DNA from: Pirellulales bacterium
GTDB lineage: Bacteria > Planctomycetota > Planctomycetia > Pirellulales > PALSA-1355
DNA length: 64,000 bases
Reading direction: 5' to 3'
NCBI GenBank assembly: GCA_963733035.1
Contig: CAVTBU010000008.1
Coordinates: 1-64,000 of the forward strand
Under the pieces are notes generated by a model that saw nothing but the letters and a program-made list of their open reading frames with translations, was not told the origin of the DNA and made no database searches. The first letter of the stretch is position 1, and every line of letters starts with the position of its first letter. Below, in pieces: positions 1-29,291 of the stretch. The position numbers and the translations under genes are program-made.

Positions 1-1587
1 GGGGATCATGGCGACGCGAAAGCCGACCCAAGGCTTCATAAGTGTCGGGTAGGCGAAGTCGATGAACCGCGCCGAGGACGCCAAATCGAGAACGGAGCTG
101 GTGTTGAACGAACCGCCCCGCAAACCCCGTACCACACCGTTAATCAACGTGTCGTTCCATTCTTCGATGTTGCCTCCCTGGTCGAGCGTGCCGTACGGGC
201 TAGCCGACGACGCGAAATGCCCCACCTCGGTCAAATATGAGCTGGCGAAATTAGCGTTGTTGCCTGCATCAACGTAGGCATTCGACGGATAGGTGTCGCT
301 AGAGGTTGGAAACGTAAAATACGAGCTTGTGCTCGGGTCATAGTAGGCTGCCTTGTACCACTCGTCCTCGCTGGGAATAACGATTCTCGCGTCGGAATTA
401 CGCGTCACCGCGAGAAGCGCGGCGTCCGTGATCGCTCCGTTGAGCGTATACGCGCCGTCTTCTGTTGAGGCTGCGTTTTGCGGCACGGCGGGACCACCCA
501 GCCCAGGCTGTCCGTTTTGCAACCAGTTGGCAAAACGGGCCGCGTCGCCCAAAGTAACCCAATTCTCCGGCAGGTTGTCATAGCCCGCCTTCGCGGCATA
601 ACTGTAGCTGCCCGGAATGCCGCTTCGCGTGATGCCACCGTCAAGTGGGTATAAGCCGTAGGTATCGGTCGCCGCCACAGAATTCAAGAACTCGACATAT
701 TGGCTAGTCGTGACTTCAAACTTGTCGATGCTGTAATTGTAAGCCACCGACCCATAGCCAGTCGTCCCATCGTTCATGATCGTTGTGTCTGCCGGATTGC
801 CCGGATTGCCAATTGGCACCCAATCAATCGTAACGGCAGAGGCCGACGACACTACGCAAAACAAAAGCACAAGTGATATTCCAAGCGAGCGCATCACATT
901 CCGCCATCGCTTTCGCTGAACGAATCCTAAAGGAATCAGTGCAAGCGCGGCGAGGGCATACGTTGAGGGCTCGGGGACGAGCGCCAATGTCTCGATCCCG
1001 AAGGCAATGGAAGTCGGCGTTTCAATTCTCAGTGCCCCACCAGGATAGTTCAACAGACCAGTGTAAATTGAAAGAAAAAAATACGGTTCAAATATCGGTG
1101 ACACAATGAAAGTAGGCAGTTGGCTCAAGTCACTTGGCAGGTCGCCGAGAAAGTAGTTTTCAAGTGTAACCGAAAGATCGCCGGAACCGGAATCGGGTTC
1201 GTACGACCACCCGCCGCCACCCAGGTCAGTTGACAAGAATGTCTCGTCGAATTTTACCGTGCCTGGTAACTGTCCTGGTGCCTGCGTCGACAAGACGATT
1301 ATTCCCGGGAGTGTCGATTGTAGGATCAGACCGTTGGCCTCAACCGTCAAGTTGCTCGGCGGAAGGCTTTGCTGAAACTCGGTCACGGTTGGAGACAATG
1401 GGTCCGCAACCGCCGACGTGTCGATTGAGAATGTACCGCTAAACGGCATTCCAATCGGTATCGGTTCGACCGACGACGCTGTGACCGTCCCCGAGAACGC
1501 GTATGTGATGGTGCCTGCCCAAGCCGCATCGTGCGACGTTATGGCGATTCCAAATCCAATCACCGCTAGCGCCAGTATCGGACGCAT
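1..1587 (-). CDS. Secreted two-module protein: N-terminal PEP-CTERM module, internal sorting signal, then SUMF1/FGE-sulfatase-family domain; runs off the left edge
   Basis: Manual translation from ATG 1587 (GAGGA RBS just upstream) is open to base 1. Signal peptide MRPILALAVIGFGIAITSHDAAWAG, then internal VPEPSTYALAALALIPLGFVQRKRWR, then VTIDWVPIGNPGN..FEVT..YVEFLN..IPSEDEWYKAAYY..DQGGNIEEW..RGGSF..GFRVAMIP. Absent from the ORF track because there is no stop in the window. Confidence 0.85.
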   Translation of the reverse strand, partial: MRPILALAVIGFGIAITSHDAAWAGTITYAFSGTVTASSVEPIPIGMPFSGTFSIDTSAVADPLSPTVTEFQQSLPPSNLTVEANGLILQSTLPGIIVLSTQAPGQLPGTVKFDETFLSTDLGGGGWSYEPDSGSGDLSVTLENYFLGDLPSDLSQLPTFIVSPIFEPYFFLSIYTGLLNYPGGALRIETPTSIAFGIETLALVPEPSTYALAALALIPLGFVQRKRWRNVMRSLGISLVLLFCVVSSASAVTIDWVPIGNPGNPADTTIMNDGTTGYGSVAYNYSIDKFEVTTSQYVEFLNSVAATDTYGLYPLDGGITRSGIPGSYSYAAKAGYDNLPENWVTLGDAARFANWLQNGQPGLGGPAVPQNAASTEDGAYTLNGAITDAALLAVTRNSDARIVIPSEDEWYKAAYYDPSTSSYFTFPTSSDTYPSNAYVDAGNNANFASSYLTEVGHFASSASPYGTLDQGGNIEEWNDTLINGVVRGLRGGSFNTSSVLDLASSARFIDFAYPTLMKPWVGFRVAMIP

Positions 1588-1729
1588 TAGGGTCCTCACA
1601 TAGTTACAACTGAACCAGAACGCCGAGAGAAAGCAGCCCAGGTTGCGGGCGGCTTAAGGTTGAGAGGCTAGGACGTTAGCTGTTCTCTGGTTCAATGGCC
1701 GGCCAAGCGCGGCCGTGGCGGTAGCCGCG

Positions 1730-1800: not shown

Positions 1801-2073
1801 CTAAGACGTAGAGGTGTCGTCGCCGGATGCTGCCGAAGATTCACTCGGCCGTGAACGCGGAATGACAGTGGACATAGCCGATGCAATTACGGACCCGGCA
1901 ATTGCAAGCAGAATCGCAATGCCAAGAATCCAGTCTCGTGCAAGGATGGCACGAGCGATCGCTAAGAGCAGACCAACAGCAATCAGCGCCCCCGCGCCCG
2001 CCATTGCTAAGCTGGGCCTTTGCTTTAATTTCAAAACGGCTTTAGGAGCTTCGTACGGGTTGTCGGCGCTCAT
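1801..2073 (-). CDS. Small two-TM membrane protein with N-terminal NPY motif
   Basis: MSADNPYEAP followed by two hydrophobic helices; the start could be 2094. Confidence 0.65.
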   Translation of the reverse strand: MSADNPYEAPKAVLKLKQRPSLAMAGAGALIAVGLLLAIARAILARDWILGIAILLAIAGSVIASAMSTVIPRSRPSESSAASGDDTSTS

Positions 2074-2539
2074 TTGCGACGGCTCTGGGCTCATGTGACC
2101 ATTCTATCAGGTCCTCCCCACGGGTCCTTCCTGGCGACTTGAATCCTCGACGCCACCGGGAACACCCGCGATATGAGACTCTCTTTCTTTAGTTGACAAA
2201 TTGCCCGATTTGCTCCACTAACCGCTTCCCTGTAACCTGTGAAGAATTCCACATCGCCCTACGAGAGCCTTTTTGATGACAGTCTGCATTGCGGCGATCT
2301 GTGAAAACGGTAAGTCCATTGTCATGGCGGCCGACCGTTTTCGATGGCACCCCACCGCCAACATTGAAGCCGAAGTTGACGAGTCGAAGTATCGTTTCCT
2401 CAGCGATCAAATGGCGCTAATGGGGTCCGGGAACAGTCACAGCGTTGAAGCAGTCCTCCGGCGAGCGAGGACTGCGGTCGCAGGGCTTTCGGCGGTCGAC
2501 GCGGCCGCGAGAATTCTTGACGCATGTCAAGCTGTGCGA

Positions 2540-3943
2540 GATTGAGCAACCGTTTTTCTGTAAAAGCTTCGGGAGCTTGTTTGGGGTGGGCTAGTTGGTT
2601 TCCAGGTTGAGGTAGATTTTTCCGGTTTCCCAGTCTTCGCTGGTTTCTTGGAGGATGGCGGTGACGAGCCGCAGGAGCGAGGCCTCGTTGGGGAACAGCG
2701 TGGCGACGCGGGTGCGGCGTTTGATTTCTTCGTTGAGGCGCTCCAGCGGATTGCTCGTGCGCAGCCGGCGGCGATGTTCGGCCGGCAAGGCGAACACGGT
2801 CAGTCCTTCGGGCACGTTGGCTTCCAGCCAGGTGGCCAGCTTCGGCGCGGTGGTCTGGTACTTCTGAACCAGCACGCCCAGTTGCCGCTCGGCCTCGCCG
2901 CGATCGGGCGCGTCCCACACGCCGCGCAGATCGCGAGCCACCTCGCGCCGCATCGGCAGTTTCGGCACGTAGTGCAGCGCGTTTTGCATCAGGTGGAACT
3001 GGCAGCGTTGCCAAGGGACGCTGGGGAAGCAAGCCCGGCGTGCCTGGCCCAGCCCGGCGTGATCGTCGCTGGTGATCAGCCGCACGCCGTGCAGACCGCG
3101 GTCGATGAGCGAGGAGAGGAACGAACGCCAGTGCACCTCGGCCTCGGAGAGCGAGACGCTGACTCCCAGGATCGAACGCCGGCCATCGGGCGTGACACCG
3201 ATCGCGATCAGCACCGCGCAATCGACGACGCTGCCGCCGTGGCGAACTTTTTCGTAACGGGCATCGAGGATCAGGTACGGCGTCGCGCCCAGCGGCCGCT
3301 TGCGCCAAATCTCCAGCTCGGCATCGAGCTGCTCGGCCGCCCGGCTGACCTGCATGCTGGAGACCTCACAGCCGCACAACTCGCGGGTGATCTCGGCCAC
3401 CTTGCGCGTCGAGACGCCTTGCACGTACATCTCGGCCAGGGCCAGCTTCAAGGCCCGTTCGCTGCGTTCGCCGCGTTCGAGCGCCGACGGGTAGAACTCG
3501 ACGCCACGGGTTTGGGGCACCTGCAAGTGTAACTTGCCGAGACGGCTGGTGATGGTCTTGGGCTTGAAGCCGTTGGCATAACCGAGTCGCGTTTCGGTGC
3601 GTTCATAAGGGGAGGCGCCCAGCACCGCGGAGCGTTCGAGCTTCATCGCTTCGTTGAACAGGGTTTCGAGTGCCTGAGCCATGCCTTCGAATCCGTGCTC
3701 GGCCAGGAGGTGGACAACTTCGTCGCGGGCGTTAGATTGATCGTGGTGGGCCATGGGGGCGAACTCCTTTCGTTTTGCGTAGAGAACAAAATCAAAAGGA
3801 AACCACCTTGGCCCACCCCTTTCAAGCTCGTCGCCGCGTGTGAGGCCTGGCTCCGCTTCGGCTCGCTGACGCTCGCCTTCGCTCCGCCAAGCCTCACACG
3901 CGAATTCCTTGAGTGCTGTTTACAGAAGAAACGTTACACCAAC
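2540..3943 (-). mobile_element. Complete IS256-family insertion sequence, 1404 bp
   Basis: 8-bp direct repeat CTGTGCGA at 2532-2539 and 3944-3951; imperfect 25-bp terminal inverted repeats GATTGAGCAACCGTTTTTCTGTAAA vs GTTGGTGTAACGTTTCTTCTGTAAA (reverse complement of the right end). Confidence 0.93.
2591..3754 (-). CDS. IS256-family (Mutator-type DDE) transposase
   Basis: 387 aa; MYVQGVSTRKV, LILDARYEK, ITSDDHAGL, WQRCQFH, RTSNPLERLNEEIKRR motifs. Confidence 0.96.
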   Translation of the reverse strand: MAHHDQSNARDEVVHLLAEHGFEGMAQALETLFNEAMKLERSAVLGASPYERTETRLGYANGFKPKTITSRLGKLHLQVPQTRGVEFYPSALERGERSERALKLALAEMYVQGVSTRKVAEITRELCGCEVSSMQVSRAAEQLDAELEIWRKRPLGATPYLILDARYEKVRHGGSVVDCAVLIAIGVTPDGRRSILGVSVSLSEAEVHWRSFLSSLIDRGLHGVRLITSDDHAGLGQARRACFPSVPWQRCQFHLMQNALHYVPKLPMRREVARDLRGVWDAPDRGEAERQLGVLVQKYQTTAPKLATWLEANVPEGLTVFALPAEHRRRLRTSNPLERLNEEIKRRTRVATLFPNEASLLRLVTAILQETSEDWETGKIYLNLETN

Positions 3944-6658: not shown

Positions 6659-6764
6659 CAGCCCGGCGAAGAGTCGGACCGCTTGCCATCCGGGGCTGGG
6701 CGCGGTTTAGTGGAGCGGTCGTCCTCGCCGTTTCCGCAGCCGCGCCTTGCCCCACAGGTTTCCG

Positions 6765-7684
6765 ATGCCCCCGCCCGCTCCGCAGCGCAATCTCGCAGGT
6801 GTGCTGTGCGTGTTTCAAACGCCGTACTCGCCTGACGAGTCGATCGACTACGACACGCTGCAAGCCGAGATCGAATGGCTTTACGATCGCGGCGCCGACG
6901 GCATCGTGCTGGCCATGGTGTCGGAAGTGCTGCGACTGTCGAGCTCTGAGCGCCTGCAGCTCGCCGAAGCCGCCTGCCGATTCGGCGGCCAGCGCGGCGT
7001 GGTGATTGTCAGCGTGGGCGCCGAAAGCAGCCACACGGCCGAAGCATTTGCACGGCATGCCCAGCAAATTGGCGCCGACGCGGTGATGGCCGTGCCGCCA
7101 GTCGCGGTCACCCTGACCGAGGAGCAACTGCTGGATTACTATCGGCGGATCTTGCGCCGATCGAGATTCCCGTCATCGTGCAGGACGCCAGCGGTTATGT
7201 GGGCCGCCCGCTCCCCATTTCACTGCTGGCCCGACTGCTCGACGAGTATGGCGAGCGCGTGCTCTTTAAACCCGAAGCCACTCCCATCGGGCCCCGGCTT
7301 TCGGAGTTGCTCGCCGCAACAGGGGGCCGGGCTCGCGTTTTTGAAGGAACCGGCGGAATCGCGCTGGTCGACAGCTTCAAGCGCGGCATCGTCGGCACCA
7401 TGCCCGGGGCCGACCTGGTCGACGGCATCGTCGCGCTCTGGCGGGCCCTCATCGCCGGCGACGAAGCCAGGGCCTATCGCGTTTGGCTACCGCTTGCCGC
7501 GTTGGTCTCGCTACAGCACAGCCTCGATGCATTTCTGGCCATCGAAAAGTATCTGCTCGTCAAGCAAGGGATCTTCAAAAACGCCGTCGTGCGCGGGCCC
7601 GTGGGTTACACGCTCGACGAGCCGACCCGTCTGCAAGTCGATCGCCTGTTCGAGCTGCTCACAAGCGAGGTCGCCCAGCAGTAA
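6765..7684 (+). pseudogene. Dihydrodipicolinate synthase (DapA)-family aldolase, frameshifted near 7155-7160
   Basis: N-half (TPYSPDESIDY, VSVGAES, GADAVMAVPP) is in frame 6747 and C-half (IPVIVQDASGY, LFKPEA, GTMPG) in frame 7178; single-base offset, possibly a sequencing error. Confidence 0.8.
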
Positions 7685-7711
7685 TCGCGCCACGTGGTTT
7701 GCACGGCGCGT

Positions 7712-7757
7712 AAAAAGAAACCGGGCCGGCGACGCCTGGCCGCCGACCCGGACTTTC
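7712..7757. terminator. Probable bidirectional intrinsic terminator
   Basis: GC-rich hairpin CCGGGCCGGCG..CGCCGACCCGG with an A-run on the left and TTT on the right, between convergent genes. Confidence 0.6.
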
Positions 7758-7794
7758 CGTTCACTAACTGCCTGCTTGCAAATTGCCGCGTCGG

Positions 7795-8352
7795 CTATTT
7801 GGCCGCCGTGGCGGTCTTCGTTTCGGCCAGACCGATCACGCCCAGGCCCACGCGCGGACCGGCGTCGCCAGCCGGTTGACTCTTCAGGTCGTCGACGCCG
7901 CCATGGACGACAATCGAGCGGCCCAGGAGGTGATGCAAGTTGGTCTTTTCGGCTTTCACGTTCACCTTGGCCACGCCGTTGGCGTCGGCTTCGATGTTGC
8001 CCAAGTCGCCGACGTGATGTTCCTTCGACGCAGGGCCGCCGTGCGGGTGACCGTCCGGATTGTAATGGCCACCGGCGCTGGTGCCGTCCGCGGCGCGGAG
8101 ATCGCCATACATATGAATGTGGAAACCGTGCTTGCCCGGTTTCAAGCCAGTGACTTCACCGGTAACAAGCACGTAACCGTGCTCCTGCGTCAACGTGATC
8201 ACGCCGCCCGTGTCGCTCTTGCTGGCCTTGGTCGGCACGATGACCGCCACGGCTTCCTTAATGGCATCGGCCTTGTGATGATCGTCAGCCTGTACGTTGG
8301 CGACCAGCAGGCTCGCCAACACGGCTGAGGCAGTCAATAGAGTCGTCTTCAT
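7795..8352 (-). CDS. sodC: Cu/Zn superoxide dismutase, exported
   Basis: Signal peptide; GFHIH, SAGGHYNP, HVGDLGNI, SIVVH, GPR..GVI motifs. Confidence 0.95.
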   Translation of the reverse strand: MKTTLLTASAVLASLLVANVQADDHHKADAIKEAVAVIVPTKASKSDTGGVITLTQEHGYVLVTGEVTGLKPGKHGFHIHMYGDLRAADGTSAGGHYNPDGHPHGGPASKEHHVGDLGNIEADANGVAKVNVKAEKTNLHHLLGRSIVVHGGVDDLKSQPAGDAGPRVGLGVIGLAETKTATAAK

Positions 8353-11392: not shown

Positions 11393-11845
11393 TCAATCCC
11401 AGACGTATCGTTCGTCGAATTCTATTTCGTTGCGCTCTAGCAACATTCGAAACTCGTCCTGAAAACTGCGCGATTGGTGGTGCTCCTTTTGTTGGCGAAT
11501 GTAGTCAATCACTTGCTGTGCGTTCGACTGACTCACGGAAAATGCACCATATCCGCTTTGCCAATGAAACCCCGAAAACAACGCGTTCTTTGTCTTGATC
11601 CACTTGGAGGTGGACGTTTTCAGCTCCTCCACGACCGCGGCAATCGTCGTCACACGCGAAAGCGCGAATAGCGTGTGCAGATGATCCGCCATGCCGTTCA
11701 TGGCCAGGCACGGACAGCCCATGTTTTGCAGGACCGTTGTGCCGTAGGCGTGTAGTTCGGATTCAACATTACGGCGAATCCAGGGATCTCTGTTCTTCGT
11801 GCTGAACACCAGATGGACGAGCACCGAAGAAAGGGATTGAGGCAT
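11393..11845 (-). CDS. tnpA: HUH Y1 transposase (IS200/IS605 TnpA superfamily, REP-associated type)
   Basis: HLVFSTKNR, DHLH (HUH), FHWQSGYGAFSVS, YIRQQKEHH (catalytic Tyr); no tnpB nearby. Confidence 0.93.
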   Translation of the reverse strand: MPQSLSSVLVHLVFSTKNRDPWIRRNVESELHAYGTTVLQNMGCPCLAMNGMADHLHTLFALSRVTTIAAVVEELKTSTSKWIKTKNALFSGFHWQSGYGAFSVSQSNAQQVIDYIRQQKEHHQSRSFQDEFRMLLERNEIEFDERYVWD

Positions 11846-11875
11846 GGATGGCACTCACGAATACAACAATTCGGC

Positions 11876-11968: not shown

Positions 11969-12770
11969 GCAATATTCGATACCTGCGCGTGACGCGGAAA
12001 CTCGAAAGTCTCCGCTTGAAATCGGGCCAGCACCTGCGGCATACTCACCCGCGGTCGGATGGCCTGCGACGTGTGGACGAGCAACAAGCCTGGGACCTTG
12101 GTTGTCTTGTCTTTGGAACCTGCCCATCCCCGCCGACACGTTTCGGCGGCACGAGGATTACGGGGTTCGCTTGCGTCCACATGTTCGCCGCTTGCCGCAA
12201 AACGACGGCGCCGGGGTACCACGGCGCTGCTCTTGCGCGGCAGGTCTGGCTGTCTTTGCCGCACGAAGGTTTTTTAGCCTGGCTTGGCGGTGGCGGAAGC
12301 CGCCGTCACTTGACGTACTGGTAAAACGAGTGCTTCGTGCTGCATGCCGCGTGTCGCGCCGCTCGGTCGATGGCCGAGGAGTGACCAACCATTAACCACT
12401 TTCAAAGTCCAATCCCGGCTCAACCGAGCACGACACGCTTCTGTTTTTAAAAAGCGTCCAACCAAACGCCGTGCGCACCCTTGCGCTGGCGTTTGGTTTT
12501 TTTGTTTTCAATTCGTCCTTTGTGCCCTTGGTGGTTTTTTATCAACATCCTGTTTTTAATTGCTTACAGTTGCCCCTTCGCAGCCTTGGGTTCATTCGGA
12601 AGAATCGCGATTCGCGTCCACAGGACCAGGGGCCGACGCCCGCTGGCCATTCGGGGTCGCCGCTGTGTGGCTGTTGCGCAGGCCCGCGTTGTCGGTCGGG
12701 CCTGAGTGACACGCAAAGTCACAAAGAAGTGTCTGCCAGGCCAGGGCCTGACCTACTAGAAATGCGCCCC

Positions 12771-14078
12771 TTACCCATTGAACTTGCTGGCGACGAGGGC
12801 GATGTTTTGGCCGCCGAAGCCGAAGCTGTTGCTGAGGGTGTGTTCGCACTTCGACGGGCGGGCCTGGTTGGGGATGTAGTCCAGGTCGCACGCCGGGTCC
12901 GGGGTGTGGTAGTTGATCGTCGGCGGCAGCACCCCGTCGCGGATCGCCATCAGGCACACGATCAATTCCGTCGCCCCGGCCGCCGCGATCAAATGACCCA
13001 TCATGCTCTTGGTGCTCGACACGGGCGTCTGGTACGCCGCGTTCTCCCCCAACGCCTTCTTGATCGCCAGCGTCTCCACCCGATCGTTCACGCTCGTGCT
13101 CGTCCCGTGCGCGTTGATGTAGTGCAGGTCCGTCGGGTTCAGCTCCGCATCCTGCAGGGCCAGCTGAATGCACCTGGCCGCCCCACGTCCTTCCGGATGC
13201 GTGTCGGTGATCCGGTACGCGTCGGCCGTGCTCCCATAGCCGGTCAATTCTCCATAAATCTGCGCACCACGCCGCTTGGCGTGCTCCAATTCCTCCAGCA
13301 CCACCATCGACGCCCCTTCCCCCAGCACAAACCCGTCCCGGTCCTTGTCGAACGGACGCGAAGCTTCCTGCGGATGGTCGTTGTTGGTGCTCAAGGCCGT
13401 CAGCAGGTTAAATCCCGTCACGCCGAACGGGTGAATCATGCTGTGCGTCCCGCCCGACAGCATCACGTCCGCGTCCCCCCGCCGGATCAGCTCCGACGCC
13501 TCGCCGATCGCCTGGCTGCTAGCGGCACAAGCCGTCAGGCAGTTGGCATTCGGGCCCTGCGCGTTGAACATCGCCGCCAGGTGGCCGGCCGGCATGTTCG
13601 GCTCCTGCTCCAACTCCACCGTCGGGTGCAGCCACTCCAGGCCCGCCTTGGTGAACAACGCCAAATCGAACGCCTCGCCACGCAGGGCACTGGCCATCAT
13701 CCGCGCAAAGCACTGGAAGTCCTGCTGTCCCTCGCCGCTCCCCAGGTACACGCCAAACCGGGTCGGATCCAGGCTCGTATCCAAGATCCCCGCGTCGCCA
13801 ACCGCCTTCTTGGCCGCCCCGGCCGCGAACTTCGTGTGCCGGCCACGCAGCTGCCACACCGCCGGGTCTTCCCCCACCTGGCCCACGTCCCAGTCGCGCA
13901 CCTCGGCCGAGATCTTCGTCGGGAACCGGCTGGCGTCGAAGATCGACGTGTAGCCCACCCCCGACTGACCTTGCTTCAGCCCTTCCCACAGCTGGTGCAC
14001 GTCGGTCCCCATCGGCGTGATCACGCCCACGCCCGTCACGACCACCCGTCGACGCTGCTGCGCCCGATCGATCATCAT
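12771..14078 (-). CDS. fabF: Beta-ketoacyl-ACP synthase, FabF-like (copy 1)
   Basis: RVVVTGVG, TACAAS (Cys), DGFVLGEG, NAHGTST, KSMMGHL, SNSFGFGG. Confidence 0.93.
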   Translation of the reverse strand: MMIDRAQQRRRVVVTGVGVITPMGTDVHQLWEGLKQGQSGVGYTSIFDASRFPTKISAEVRDWDVGQVGEDPAVWQLRGRHTKFAAGAAKKAVGDAGILDTSLDPTRFGVYLGSGEGQQDFQCFARMMASALRGEAFDLALFTKAGLEWLHPTVELEQEPNMPAGHLAAMFNAQGPNANCLTACAASSQAIGEASELIRRGDADVMLSGGTHSMIHPFGVTGFNLLTALSTNNDHPQEASRPFDKDRDGFVLGEGASMVVLEELEHAKRRGAQIYGELTGYGSTADAYRITDTHPEGRGAARCIQLALQDAELNPTDLHYINAHGTSTSVNDRVETLAIKKALGENAAYQTPVSSTKSMMGHLIAAAGATELIVCLMAIRDGVLPPTINYHTPDPACDLDYIPNQARPSKCEHTLSNSFGFGGQNIALVASKFNG

Positions 14079-14135
14079 GGTTCGTCCCCTCGCCCCTGTG
14101 GTGGGTATTGCCCCTTCTGGGTATTCCTGTGCGTA

Positions 14136-14663
14136 TTACGTGCCGCTCGCCTGCGCCTGCAAGCTGGCCGGTATCGACAGCGGCTCCCCCGCGGCGTCGC
14201 GACCCACGTCGAACACCCCCAGCAGCTTCAACATCGCCAGCAGGCTCGGCGGATCGAACAGCGACTTGCTCCCCGCCACCGTCTCGCTCAGGTGCGCAAA
14301 GAACAACTGCACCTCCGCCTGCAAACGAGGGCCCACGTGGCTCGTCCCGCTCACGATCGCCCCGTCCTTATGGATATCGTCTATCGTCACCTGATAGACC
14401 AGCGTGTCACCCGGACTCGCCGAGAAGTGGAACCGCGCCTTGGCCACCTTCGCCAGCACCACCCGCTCCTCGAAGTCCCCATGCTCGGCCACCAGCAGAC
14501 CGCCCGTCTGCGCCAAACCCTCGATCACCAACGCATTGGGCATCAGCGGCGCGCCGGGGAAGTGATCGTGCAGGTGGCCCTCGGCCAGCGACACGTTCTT
14601 CAACGCCGTCGCCGTCCGACCACTCTCAAACTGCGTGAATCGATCAATCCAAAACCAACGCAT
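14136..14663 (-). CDS. FabZ-like hotdog dehydratase (copy 1)
   Basis: WIDR, ALKNVS, DHFPGAPLMPNALVIEGLAQ with His and Glu retained. Confidence 0.9.
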   Translation of the reverse strand: MRWFWIDRFTQFESGRTATALKNVSLAEGHLHDHFPGAPLMPNALVIEGLAQTGGLLVAEHGDFEERVVLAKVAKARFHFSASPGDTLVYQVTIDDIHKDGAIVSGTSHVGPRLQAEVQLFFAHLSETVAGSKSLFDPPSLLAMLKLLGVFDVGRDAAGEPLSIPASLQAQASGT

Positions 14664-14777
14664 GATGCTTAGGCCTGAGGCTCAAGACTCGAGGCTTGTG
14701 GAACCGAAAGGCGGAACTCAGCAGGATCCACGATGAGCAGGACCCGGCTTCATCCCCCCAAATGCATCCGGCCCCCC

Positions 14778-15167
14778 TCACGCTCCCACTTTGCTCTCCA
14801 CGTAGCGGCACATGTCCTGCACCGTCAGCAGGTTCCCAAAATCCTGCACCACCGGGTTGGCAGAAAACGCCGACAGGTCCGCAAACGGCATCCGGGCCTC
14901 CAACTGCTTCAGCCCCTCGGCCGTCACCTTCCCGTTCTGCACAAACTGCGCGTTCGTCAAAATATCCTCCGGAAACAACTCCCCACGAGGAATCTTGATG
15001 TCAAACGACTTCTCCAGACGGAACACAATGTCCAAAAAGTCTATCGACTCCGCTCCCAAGTCTCCCACCAATCGCGCTCCCGGCGTCACCTCCTCCTCGT
15101 CCACTCCCAACGCATCCACCAACGACTCCTGAACCTTCGAAAATACCTCCTCCTTCGTCACCACCAT
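14778..15167 (-). CDS. Extended acyl carrier protein (copy 1)
   Basis: DLGAESIDFLDIVFRLEKSFDI carries the phosphopantetheine Ser; 129 aa with a long insertion before the last helix. Confidence 0.92.
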   Translation of the reverse strand: MVVTKEEVFSKVQESLVDALGVDEEEVTPGARLVGDLGAESIDFLDIVFRLEKSFDIKIPRGELFPEDILTNAQFVQNGKVTAEGLKQLEARMPFADLSAFSANPVVQDFGNLLTVQDMCRYVESKVGA

Positions 15168-15303
15168 CGCTCACATCCTCCGTTTAACAAAATTGTGTCT
15201 CGTCGCGCTGGTGCATCGACGATTAGTCGTGGCCCCGCATGCGAGCGGAAATTCCGTCGCAGATACGCCCGAAATCGCCCGGCGACATTCGCCAGACATG
15301 CGA

Positions 15304-26425: not shown

Positions 26426-26494
26426 AACGGATGGCCAACTGAGGTTCGCCGGAGTTTGGGCGTGCGCGAACGCGGAGCTCGCTTCGGCGGCCCC

Positions 26495-27802
26495 TTACCG
26501 TTTGAACTTGCTGGCGACGAGGGCGATGTTTTGGCCGCCGAAGCCGAAGCTGTTGCTGAGGGTGTGTTCGCACTTTGACGGGCGGGCCTGGTTGGGGATG
26601 TAGTCCAGGTCGCACGCCGGGTCCGGCGTGTGGTAGTTGATCGTCGGCGGCAGCACCCCGTCGCGGATCGCCATCAGGCACACGATCAATTCCGTCGCCC
26701 CGGCCGCCGCGATCAAATGACCCATCATGCTCTTGGTGCTCGACACGGGCGTCCGGTACGCCGCCTCTTCCCCCAACGCCTTCTTGATCGCCAGCGTCTC
26801 CACCCGATCGTTCACGCTCGTGCTCGTCCCGTGCGCGTTGATGTAGTGCAGGTCCGTCGGGTTCAGCTCCGCATCCTGCAGGGCCAGCTGAATGCACCTG
26901 GCCGCCCCACGTCCTTCCGGATGCGTGTCGGTGATCCGGTACGCGTCGGCCGTGCTCCCATAGCCGGTCAATTCTCCATAAATCTGCGCACCACGCCGCT
27001 TGGCGTGCTCCAATTCCTCCAGCACCACCATCGACGCCCCTTCCCCCAGCACAAACCCGTCCCGGTCCTTGTCGAACGGACGCGAAGCTTCCTGCGGATG
27101 GTCGTTGTTGGTGCTCAAGGCCGTCAGCAGGTTAAATCCCGTCACGCCGAACGGGTGAATCATGCTGTGCGTCCCGCCCGACAGCATCACGTCCGCGTCC
27201 CCCCGCCGGATCAGCTCCGACGCCTCGCCGATCGCCTGGCTGCTAGCGGCACAAGCCGTCAGGCAGTTGGCATTCGGGCCCTGCGCGTTGAACATCGCCG
27301 CCAGGTGGCCGGCCGGCATGTTCGGCTCCTGCTCCAACTCCACCGTCGGGTGCAGCCACTCCAGGCCCGCCTTGGTGAACAACGCCAAATCGAACGCCTC
27401 GCCACGCAGGGCACTGGCCATCATCCGCGCAAAGCACTGGAAGTCCTGCTGTCCCTCGCCGCTCCCCAGGTACACGCCAAACCGGGTCGGATCCAGGCTC
27501 GTATCCAAGATCCCCGCGTCGCCAACCGCCTTCTTGGCCGCCCCGGCCGCGAACTTCGTGTGCCGGCCACGCAGCTGCCACACCGCCGGGTCTTCCCCCA
27601 CCTGGCCCACGTCCCAGTCGCGCACCTCGGCCGAGATCTTCGTCGGGAACCGGCTGGCGTCGAAGATCGACGTGTAGCCCACCCCCGACTGACCTTGCTT
27701 CAGCCCTTCCCACAGCTGGTGCACGTCGGTCCCCATCGGCGTGATCACGCCCACGCCCGTCACGACCACCCGTCGACGCTGCTGCGCCCGATCGATCATC
27801 AT
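26495..27802 (-). CDS. fabF: Beta-ketoacyl-ACP synthase, FabF-like (copy 2)
   Basis: Identical to copy 1 except EEAAYR vs ENAAYQ and terminal KR vs NG. Confidence 0.93.
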   Translation of the reverse strand: MMIDRAQQRRRVVVTGVGVITPMGTDVHQLWEGLKQGQSGVGYTSIFDASRFPTKISAEVRDWDVGQVGEDPAVWQLRGRHTKFAAGAAKKAVGDAGILDTSLDPTRFGVYLGSGEGQQDFQCFARMMASALRGEAFDLALFTKAGLEWLHPTVELEQEPNMPAGHLAAMFNAQGPNANCLTACAASSQAIGEASELIRRGDADVMLSGGTHSMIHPFGVTGFNLLTALSTNNDHPQEASRPFDKDRDGFVLGEGASMVVLEELEHAKRRGAQIYGELTGYGSTADAYRITDTHPEGRGAARCIQLALQDAELNPTDLHYINAHGTSTSVNDRVETLAIKKALGEEAAYRTPVSSTKSMMGHLIAAAGATELIVCLMAIRDGVLPPTINYHTPDPACDLDYIPNQARPSKCEHTLSNSFGFGGQNIALVASKFKR

Positions 27803-27859
27803 GGTTCGTCCCCTCGCCCCTGTGGTGGGTATTGCCCCTTCTGGGTATTCCTGTGCGTA

Positions 27860-28387
27860 TTACGTGCCGCTCGCCTGCGCCTGCAAGCTGGCCGGTATCG
27901 ACAGCGGCTCCCCCGCGGCGTCGCGACCCACGTCGAACACCCCCAGCAGCTTCAACATCGCCAGCAGGCTCGGCGGATCGAACAGCGACTTGCTCCCCGC
28001 CACCGTCTCGCTCAGGTGCGCAAAGAACAACTGCACCTCCGCCTGCAAACGAGGGCCCACGTGGCTCGTCCCGCTCACGATCGCCCCGTCCTTATGGATA
28101 TCGTCTATCGTCACCTGATAGACCAGCGTGTCACCCGGACTCGCCGAGAAGTGGAACCGCGCCTTGGCCACCTTCGCCAGCACCACCCGCTCCTCGAAGT
28201 CCCCATGCTCGGCCACCAGCAGACCGCCCGTCTGCGCCAAACCCTCGATCACCAACGCATTGGGCATCAGCGGCGCGCCGGGGAAGTGATCGTGCAGGTG
28301 GCCCTCGGCCAGCGACACGTTCTTCAACGCCGTCGCCGTCCGACCACTCTCAAACTGCGTGAATCGATCAATCCAAAACCAACGCAT
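27860..28387 (-). CDS. FabZ-like hotdog dehydratase (copy 2)
   Basis: Protein identical to 14136-14663. Confidence 0.9.
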   Translation of the reverse strand: MRWFWIDRFTQFESGRTATALKNVSLAEGHLHDHFPGAPLMPNALVIEGLAQTGGLLVAEHGDFEERVVLAKVAKARFHFSASPGDTLVYQVTIDDIHKDGAIVSGTSHVGPRLQAEVQLFFAHLSETVAGSKSLFDPPSLLAMLKLLGVFDVGRDAAGEPLSIPASLQAQASGT

Positions 28388-28501
28388 GATGCTTAGGCCT
28401 GAGGCTCAAGACTCGAGGCTTGTGGAACCGAAAGGCGGAACTCAGCAGGATCCACGATGAGCAGGACCCGGCTTCATCCCCCCAAATGCATCCGGCCCCC
28501 C

Positions 28502-28891
28502 TCACGCTCCCACTTTGCTCTCCACGTAGCGGCACATGTCCTGCACCGTCAGCAGGTTCCCAAAATCCTGCACCACCGGGTTGGCAGAAAACGCCGACAG
28601 GTCCGCAAACGGCATCCGGGCCTCCAACTGCTTCAGCCCCTCGGCCGTCACCTTCCCGTTCTGCACAAACTGCGCGTTCGTCAAAATATCCTCCGGAAAC
28701 AACTCCCCACGAGGAATCTTGATGTCAAACGACTTCTCCAGACGGAACACAATGTCCAAAAAGTCTATCGACTCCGCTCCCAAGTCTCCCACCAATCGCG
28801 CTCCCGGCGTCACCTCCTCCTCGTCCACTCCCAACGCATCCACCAACGACTCCTGAACCTTCGAAAATACCTCCTCCTTCGTCACCACCAT
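28502..28891 (-). CDS. Extended acyl carrier protein (copy 2)
   Basis: Protein identical to 14778-15167. Confidence 0.92.
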   Translation of the reverse strand: MVVTKEEVFSKVQESLVDALGVDEEEVTPGARLVGDLGAESIDFLDIVFRLEKSFDIKIPRGELFPEDILTNAQFVQNGKVTAEGLKQLEARMPFADLSAFSANPVVQDFGNLLTVQDMCRYVESKVGA

Positions 28892-29291
28892 CGCTCACAT
28901 CCTCCGTTTAACGTATCGAATTGAAATCCTTGGAATGCTCGATGTTCACCACGGCATCGTCCTCGAAGCTGGACATCAACCCGAAGGGCAATGACCGGAG
29001 TGGCCCGCCGCACGCGCGTACCGGCTCGTCGAGAGCGCGAACTGCGGCGGAAGGACCGGTGGCGACTTCGACCCGTATGTATATCGGCCGCACAATCGTT
29101 ATTCGTCCACTAACTCGCAACGAGCAGCATACCGTGTCAACCTAGGGCACTCAAGCAGCCTGGAAGGTCCAGCCGACTGGGGCCGGCTGGCGGCTAAAAT
29201 CACATTAGTGAACCCCTGCGGATCAGCTGGCACCATAGTGCCGATGGCCTAGTTTATAATGAAATGGTCGTGAGGGGAGGACAAAAGCGCC

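Follow-up and report, generated by a model that had tools for sequence, protein, structure and literature searches.

The PEP-CTERM signal of the exosortase sorting system (EpsH, Xrt) owes its definition to a position at the C-terminus, and copies lying inside a protein have so far been set aside as probably non-functional. In the 2006 description of this system (PMC1569441), fewer than 10 residues follow the signal in 87% of the proteins, motifs lying off the end are regarded as possibly non-functional, and multi-module precursors are not described. Here we analyse an internal copy in a 64,000-nucleotide (nt) stretch of DNA from a Pirellulales bacterium (assembly GCA_963733035.1, contig CAVTBU010000008.1, positions 1 to 64,000 of the forward strand; hereafter the window), where one minus-strand open reading frame (ORF) running into the left edge appears to join two secreted proteins, modules 1 and 2. 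As in the proteins of PMC1569441, the signal combines a PEP motif with a hydrophobic helix and a basic cluster, a signal peptide stands at the N-terminus with no transmembrane (TM) segment between the two, the passenger is Ser/Thr/Asn-rich and the lineage planctomycete-like; in contrast to those classical proteins, the signal is not C-terminal but is followed by 300 amino acids (aa) that open with a second signal peptide. With a probability of about 0.5, we consider this ORF to be a real fusion of two complete secretory PEP-CTERM modules, the product of which would still be processable.

Other described systems resemble parts of this arrangement. The name of the NCBIfam family NF033207, 'midcut-by-XrtH protein', implies a mid-protein exosortase cut and so suggests a precedent for an internal site; judged by name and score, the protein encoded in the window falls outside this family (9.7 bits, E 0.84; cutoff 45) and the passenger domains differ. 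Stand-alone PEP-CTERM proteins with the fold of the formylglycine-generating enzyme (FGE), encoded in tandem arrays in Planctomycetota and Phycisphaerae (P0101, P0118 and P0121; loci L019 and L045), are 53–66% identical to module 2 over its full length. By profile hidden Markov model (HMM), module 2 has its fold family in common with the FGE SUMF1 (PF03781; PDB 1y1e, 2q17, 6muj), from which it differs in being Cys-free. In the glycoprotein precursors of Flaviviridae and bunyaviruses (PMC7601889, PMC5113920), signal peptidase cuts at internal signal peptides, and the window precursor would work alike, with an internal signal sequence behind a stop-transfer helix and a cut at the outer face that sets the next module free; it departs from these viral polyproteins in that its stop-transfer helix would be an exosortase sorting signal, its modules would be paralogous surface proteins, and it is known from sequence alone.

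The ORF occupies the minus strand from 1599 to 1 without a stop codon and encodes 533 aa, its 3' end being open at the left edge. Translation may start at GTG 1599 or at ATG 1587, which has GAGGA 5 nt upstream and is the more likely of the two; the residue numbers used here are counted from GTG 1599. The features are as follows:

1–1599, minus strand: fused ORF, 533 aa, start at GTG 1599 or ATG 1587, open at the left edge.
1516–1587, minus strand: module 1 signal peptide MRPILALAVIGFGIAITSHDAAWA, then GTITY (from homologue alignment and the AlphaFold2 (AF2) helix).
979–1515, minus strand: module 1 domain, aa 29–207 (179 aa), all-beta, of an uncharacterised PEP-CTERM protein family.
901–978, minus strand: internal PEP-CTERM sorting signal VPEPSTYALAALALIPLGFVQRKRWR, aa 208–233 (from the motif and HMM scores).
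894–900, minus strand: junction AATGTGA (N234 and V235, 900–895, in frame), with a ghost TGATG one base out of frame.
835–894, minus strand: second, internal signal peptide MRSLGISLVLLFCVVSSASA, aa 236–255, then VTIDW (from homologue alignment).
7–834, minus strand: module 2, FGE-sulfatase-fold domain, aa 256–531, without cysteine (from PF03781 and the family profile).
1–6, minus strand: 'IP' at the window edge, the expected start of a second PEP-CTERM (from homologue alignment).

An earlier note on this DNA had read here, in a single frame, a signal peptide with a domain of about 175 aa, an internal PEP-CTERM at 978–901, a second signal peptide at 894–835 with an AxA-like site, and an FGE/SUMF1 domain. 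All of these parts were recovered in that order: the first signal peptide (aa 5–28, ending in HDAAWA before GTITY) leads into a domain of 179 aa, the internal signal is exactly the one listed above, the Met and the ASA of the second signal peptide align with those of stand-alone homologues, and the FGE-type domain clears its Pfam cutoff. The internal PEP-CTERM is tripartite, consisting of the motif VPEPS, the hydrophobic helix TYALAALALIPLGFV and the basic cluster QRKRWR. Its score with TIGR02595 (cutoff 16) is borderline, 16.3 bits with module 1 alone and 14.8 bits within the whole ORF. With a PEP-CTERM HMM of our own, for which 85 terminal motifs were taken from the loci of other genomes, it reached 26.4 bits, which is inside the interquartile range of terminal and internal motifs alike.

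Module 1 has the layout of a complete PEP-CTERM protein. Its signal peptide can be aligned with those at the N-termini of 16 homologues and coincides with an AF2 helix at aa 6–25, and both the homologue alignment and the AF2 secondary structure place no TM segment between it and the PEP-CTERM. Searched exhaustively, a set of 1.84 billion representatives yielded 27 proteins at E≤1e-3, of which 22 cover the domain itself (BLASTP, E≤0.001), the best being 46% identical; all 22 are single-module, stand-alone proteins of 104–314 aa. In the alignment, 16 relatives begin with the signal peptide, extend to the PEP-CTERM and end 0–22 residues past the basic cluster; P0126 has a 78-aa tail without a hydrophobic segment, and P0147 (475 aa), a weaker match to module 1, is a two-module PEP-CTERM protein. 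The AF2 model of module 1 is confident and all-beta (pLDDT 88.5). Foldseek found no match for it in the PDB at E≤1e-3 (the top entries, LolA and OmpW, had TM-scores of 0.23–0.27), Pfam and NCBIfam recognised no domain in aa 29–207, and the clusters found in the protein atlas (0.87–0.90) were all labelled 'hypothetical protein', none of them being named.

Module 2 is matched by PF03781 with 68.9–71.6 bits (cutoff 23.3, E 1e-19) over profile positions 35–254 of 255. In an alignment of 14 sequences over the full module, the 13 homologues stand alone, at lengths of 322–374 aa, each with its own signal peptide, an AxA site and, at the C-terminus, GFRVA-(V/I)PEP with the PEP-CTERM, and they have the mature N-terminus VTIDWVPVGNPGN... 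in common with the window protein. Met236 of the window shares its alignment column with the first residue (Met or Val) of P0101, P0103, P0118 and P0121, and the ASA falls on the AxA sites of these four. A second PEP-CTERM just beyond the left edge, also foreseen in the earlier note, is strongly expected because, in the alignment with the 13 homologues, the 'IP' of the GFRVAMIP at the edge falls on the (V/I)P of their PEP motif, which hardly varies; this prediction is well supported by the alignment, the motif itself lying past the last visible base. Catalysis by FGE depends on two conserved cysteines, located after an RGGS motif. Since mature module 2 contains no cysteine at all, and the 14-sequence family alignment has no conserved Cys column, module 2 is an FGE-fold protein but probably no formylglycine generator. 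Searched against the PDB with the family profile, it found CalU17, EgtB, SUMF2 and PorK/GldK, its best solved relatives, together with PvdO and FGE structures (E 8e-12 to 4e-3); a single-sequence phmmer search of the PDB gave zero matches. A predicted complex of modules 1 and 2 scored 0.01 and 0.27, where the mark is 0.32, and no verdict is drawn from it either way.

The reading of the ORF as a processable fusion is supported by the occurrence of the same architecture in other proteins. Our protein search was restricted to lengths of 293–933 aa, the 8,000 candidates with the most shared words were scored, and the best 120 were listed. Among these 120 matches, a signal-peptide-like segment comes directly after an internal PEP-CTERM in 62 proteins with 73 internal motifs, a proportion that both the length filter and the architecture of the query itself have raised. 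A hydrophobic core follows the basic cluster in 70/73 of these internal junctions, and AxA stands behind the core in 54/73, as compared with 71/98 genuine N-termini having such a core. The median gap from basic cluster to core is only 6 residues, and a Met is present in 16 junctions and absent in 57. Because the gap is short and the Met mostly missing, the basic cluster is predicted to double as the n-region of the following signal peptide. We define a multi-module class by an internal PEP-CTERM, a hydrophobic core with AxA within approximately 45 aa, and then another secreted module. The window junction fits this grammar, as do 70/73 of the junctions and 8/8 genuine internal motifs in reference loci.

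These reference loci, 79 species-representative loci found with the whole protein as query (best identity 52%), provide a less biased sample. Among their 96 FGE modules with a visible N-terminus, 68 open an ORF of their own, with own start and stop, whereas translation reaches module 2 of the window from the gene upstream; 22 have a longer, motif-free in-frame upstream stretch, 5 are fused behind an in-frame PEP-CTERM and 1 is undetermined. Inspection adds L074, so that six fused modules sit in four loci (L004, L039, L074 and L075). The 97 PEP-CTERM motif matches in the ORFs of these loci comprise 88 C-terminal, 8 internal and 1 spurious, and a hydrophobic segment follows every one of the 8 internal motifs. 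The rule of concatenation is not tied to the FGE fold, because P0128, P0137 and P0138 carry three to five PEP-CTERMs each (five in the 1,659 aa of P0128), every internal one being followed by a signal-peptide-like segment and non-FGE modules. The architecture is also present in the complete genome of an isolate, Lacipirellula parvula, on a 6.9-Mb contig (P0108, 841 aa). The earlier note had considered that a lack of homologues with the fused architecture would speak against it; the architecture is in fact common among relatives and kept across diverged proteins. As side observations, six stand-alone FGE-fold genes lie in tandem in L045 (1527–7583), on a 5.4-Mb chromosome of a metagenome-assembled genome labelled Armatimonadetes, and in L019 (414–6061) three of them lie in a row directly behind a fused two-module ORF. 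Close FGE-fold homologues also occur in bins labelled Pacearchaeota (L043), Anaerolineales (L050), Lysobacteraceae (L056), Spirochaetales (L008) and Armatimonadota (L038), labels that may stem from mis-binning or from a wider distribution.

At least some of these fusions appear to be maintained. Nine two-module proteins, 50–62% identical pairwise, share an aligned junction, which is short and Met-less in seven and has a longer Met-containing linker in two, and L004 contains two diverged copies of the same junction in one ORF. With our own HMM, the internal motifs had a median of 33.1 bits (n=73) and the terminal ones of 28.4 bits (n=65; Mann–Whitney p=0.07), both sets having been pre-selected by one regular expression. 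The internal motifs are thus not degraded in comparison with terminal ones, and their scores speak against the suggestion of 2006 (PMC1569441) that atypically placed motifs are degenerate. A minority of junctions, those with long Met-containing linkers, resemble read-through of intergenic spacers, and accidental fusions look to occur as well as maintained ones. Taken together, the junction design appears to be tolerated across Planctomycetota and maintained in some lineages. The fused state of the module pair of the window is itself shared by no relative, so maintenance is seen only for other members of the class.

The proposed processing would begin with the first signal peptide taking module 1 across the inner membrane, after which the PEP-CTERM helix, with about 16 hydrophobic residues, would halt the transfer. 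The loop QRKRWRNVMR, with five basic residues, would be kept in the cytoplasm by the positive-inside rule (cited in PMC1569441). The former signal peptide of module 2, with its 12-residue h-region LGISLVLLFCVV, could then restart export as the second arm of a hairpin, signal peptidase I could cut at the outer face after ASA255 (between ASA and V), and exosortase could act at each PEP motif. The outcome would be two separate surface proteins and a discarded hairpin of about 50 aa. The precursor of cytochromes b and c1 of Bradyrhizobium, FbcH, is of similar design; among the open-access papers listed by our search, none contained the word fbcH. The hairpin that the earlier note had put forward, with its double cut, fits the sequence in its topology, given the helix, the loop, the h-region and the ASA site; this topology, the signal peptidase I and exosortase cuts and the one-base origin discussed below are what we infer from the sequence. 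Slightly less firmly than the fusion itself, and as a tentative generalisation, we propose that Planctomycetota and their relatives have a true bacterial polyprotein strategy, in which strings of two to five modules joined by hairpins are cut by exosortase and signal peptidase I, the window showing such a precursor at birth.

The origin of the fusion may be read from the junction. An out-of-frame TGA at 896–894 (and not at 893–895, as the earlier note had it) overlaps the ATG at 894–892 to form TGATG one base off the frame of module 1, in agreement with that note; frame f1 reads here GGM followed by the stop. Both modules align to their own families right up to the junction, and a single-base indel is therefore confined to the four bases AATG. 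Without any one of them the frame ends in ...RKRWR(M/K/N)-TGA, where stop codon and following start codon overlap as TGATG, so that the internal PEP-CTERM would become C-terminal; the assembled junction is AATGTGATG, and the one-base-shorter versions with two coupled genes are ATGTGATG, AAGTGATG and AATTGATG. We suggest that two translationally coupled genes, the end of one ('...RKRWR(M/K/N)-TGA') lying over the start of the other ('ATG-MRSLG...'), have been joined by one extra base in AATG. Tight coupling has a precedent in relatives: of 24 tandem PEP-CTERM-to-signal-peptide gene pairs, three have spacings of -8, -4 or +1 nt. The resulting junction has a 7-aa linker, a core with a KD9 of 3.2 and the ASA site before V. 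The fusion looks very young, since the relatives of module 1 all stand alone, the Met of module 2 is at the homologous start and the pairing is unshared; to this extent the earlier note's caveat about a recent indel at the TGATG seems right. Loss of the stop codon through point mutation was ruled out, as the in-frame AAT, GTG and ATG are all more than one substitution away from a stop.

Several observations weigh against the view of the ORF as a working fusion. The internal PEP-CTERM scores 16.0–18.7 bits with PF07589, below the cutoff of 20.7, and a Pfam scan of 54 ORFs across the 64 kb of the window revealed no exosortase gene. The count of 62 among the best 120 matches shrinks to about 6/96 modules and 8/97 motifs in the less biased sample. 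Moreover, the fusing of neighbours in a tandem array of secreted-protein genes gives a PEP-CTERM followed by a signal peptide whatever the cause, error included. Among ten other fused junctions, one (L070) has an out-of-frame TGATG by chance, and for this reason the ghost TGATG of the window is only modest evidence for a one-base fusion. Finally, the nearest matches are 52% identical in the reference-genome contigs and 63% identical in the protein collection, the source genome being in neither.

The competing explanation that survives best, unlikely as we consider it, is an assembly or sequencing artefact, by which two coupled genes would be joined only by a spurious base in AATG. The only site permissive for the indel is 4 nt long and its correction restores a textbook TGATG overlap, the start Met of module 2 is intact at the homologous position, and 22/22 relatives of the module 1 domain are stand-alone; the site is, however, an AA dinucleotide and not a long homopolymer, and genuine fused junctions of the same kind occur in many assemblies. 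The window may contain a second frameshift, in an ORF of 468 aa at 6747–8153 whose first 138 aa belong to the DHDPS family (profile positions 2–125 of 289), the remainder being rich in Arg, Ser and Pro; an alternative frame, 6950–7684, provides a plausible continuation (...IEIPVIVQDASGY...). A one-base frameshift near 7150 is suspected, but it is unproven and the alternative frame has no Pfam match. Pervasive indel error is not evident, because most conserved genes elsewhere in the window cover the whole or nearly the whole of their Pfam profiles (for example PEPcase 1–919/919 and FMN_dh 1–348/350).

Alternatively, the frameshift may be real and the polyprotein not work, the product being an uncleaved double-spanning protein or one that is misprocessed or degraded, as a step to gene decay in a variable region rich in insertion sequences (IS); we regard this as rather improbable. 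Such decay would agree with the presence nearby of an IS256-family element (2573–3829) and an IS200-like transposase (11393–11854), with the dip of G+C over 800–1400 (0.51 versus 0.60 window-wide), and with the opinion of Haft in 2006 (PMC1569441) that PEP-CTERM motifs far from the C-terminus are possibly non-functional. The pairing of modules is likewise without parallel: no protein combining a module-1-like domain with an FGE module was found among the 1.84 billion representatives, and such a domain is present in 0 of the 120 listed FGE-containing matches. Against decay, both modules are full length and free of further lesions, the junction retains everything that hairpin insertion and cleavage would need, equivalent junctions are conserved elsewhere at 50–62% identity, and internal motifs are undegraded. 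Least credible is a long-selected polyprotein supplying module 1 and the FGE-fold module at a fixed 1:1 ratio to work together: the class as a whole keeps fused junctions over the long term and fusion guarantees co-expression of both modules, yet no other protein joins such a pair, the start Met and ghost stop are retained here whereas 57/73 junctions are Met-less, and the 'fixed ratio' rationale of the earlier note found no support.

The fusion of the window, then, is probably a newborn member of the multi-module class and possibly an artefact; as it may be an accident or an error, it is by itself of moderate interest. The class has wider implications. Internal copies of the PEP-CTERM recur, match the terminal ones in conservation and always precede a signal-peptide-like helix, which argues against their being non-functional and suggests a simple, testable rule by which genes of secreted proteins can fuse without loss of function. 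The multi-module precursors may be regarded as a variation on the known sorting system and as a possible bacterial counterpart of the viral polyproteins processed by signal peptidase; our search of open-access papers and bioRxiv found no previous description of them. For annotation, this means that the long 'multi-FGE' planctomycete proteins of 600–1,900 aa may be precursors of several surface proteins.

In the neighbourhood of the fused gene, a scan of positions 1–2700 of the window for promoters and terminators gave no signal above the shuffled expectation. The ORF directly upstream (1801–2094, minus strand, 97 aa) has hydrophobic stretches and no Pfam match. The IS256/Mutator-family element begins approximately 1 kb upstream of the fused ORF; its transposase is encoded at 2591–3754 on the minus strand (PF00872, E 9e-108) between 19-nt inverted repeats at 2573–2591 and 3811–3829. 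The IS200-like transposase, also on the minus strand, is of the Y1 type (PF01797, E 3e-24). Farther away, a direct duplication of 2,423 bp with 99.67% identity is found at 12766–15188 and 26490–28912, each copy holding a gene for a 435-aa beta-ketoacyl synthase (fabF-like).

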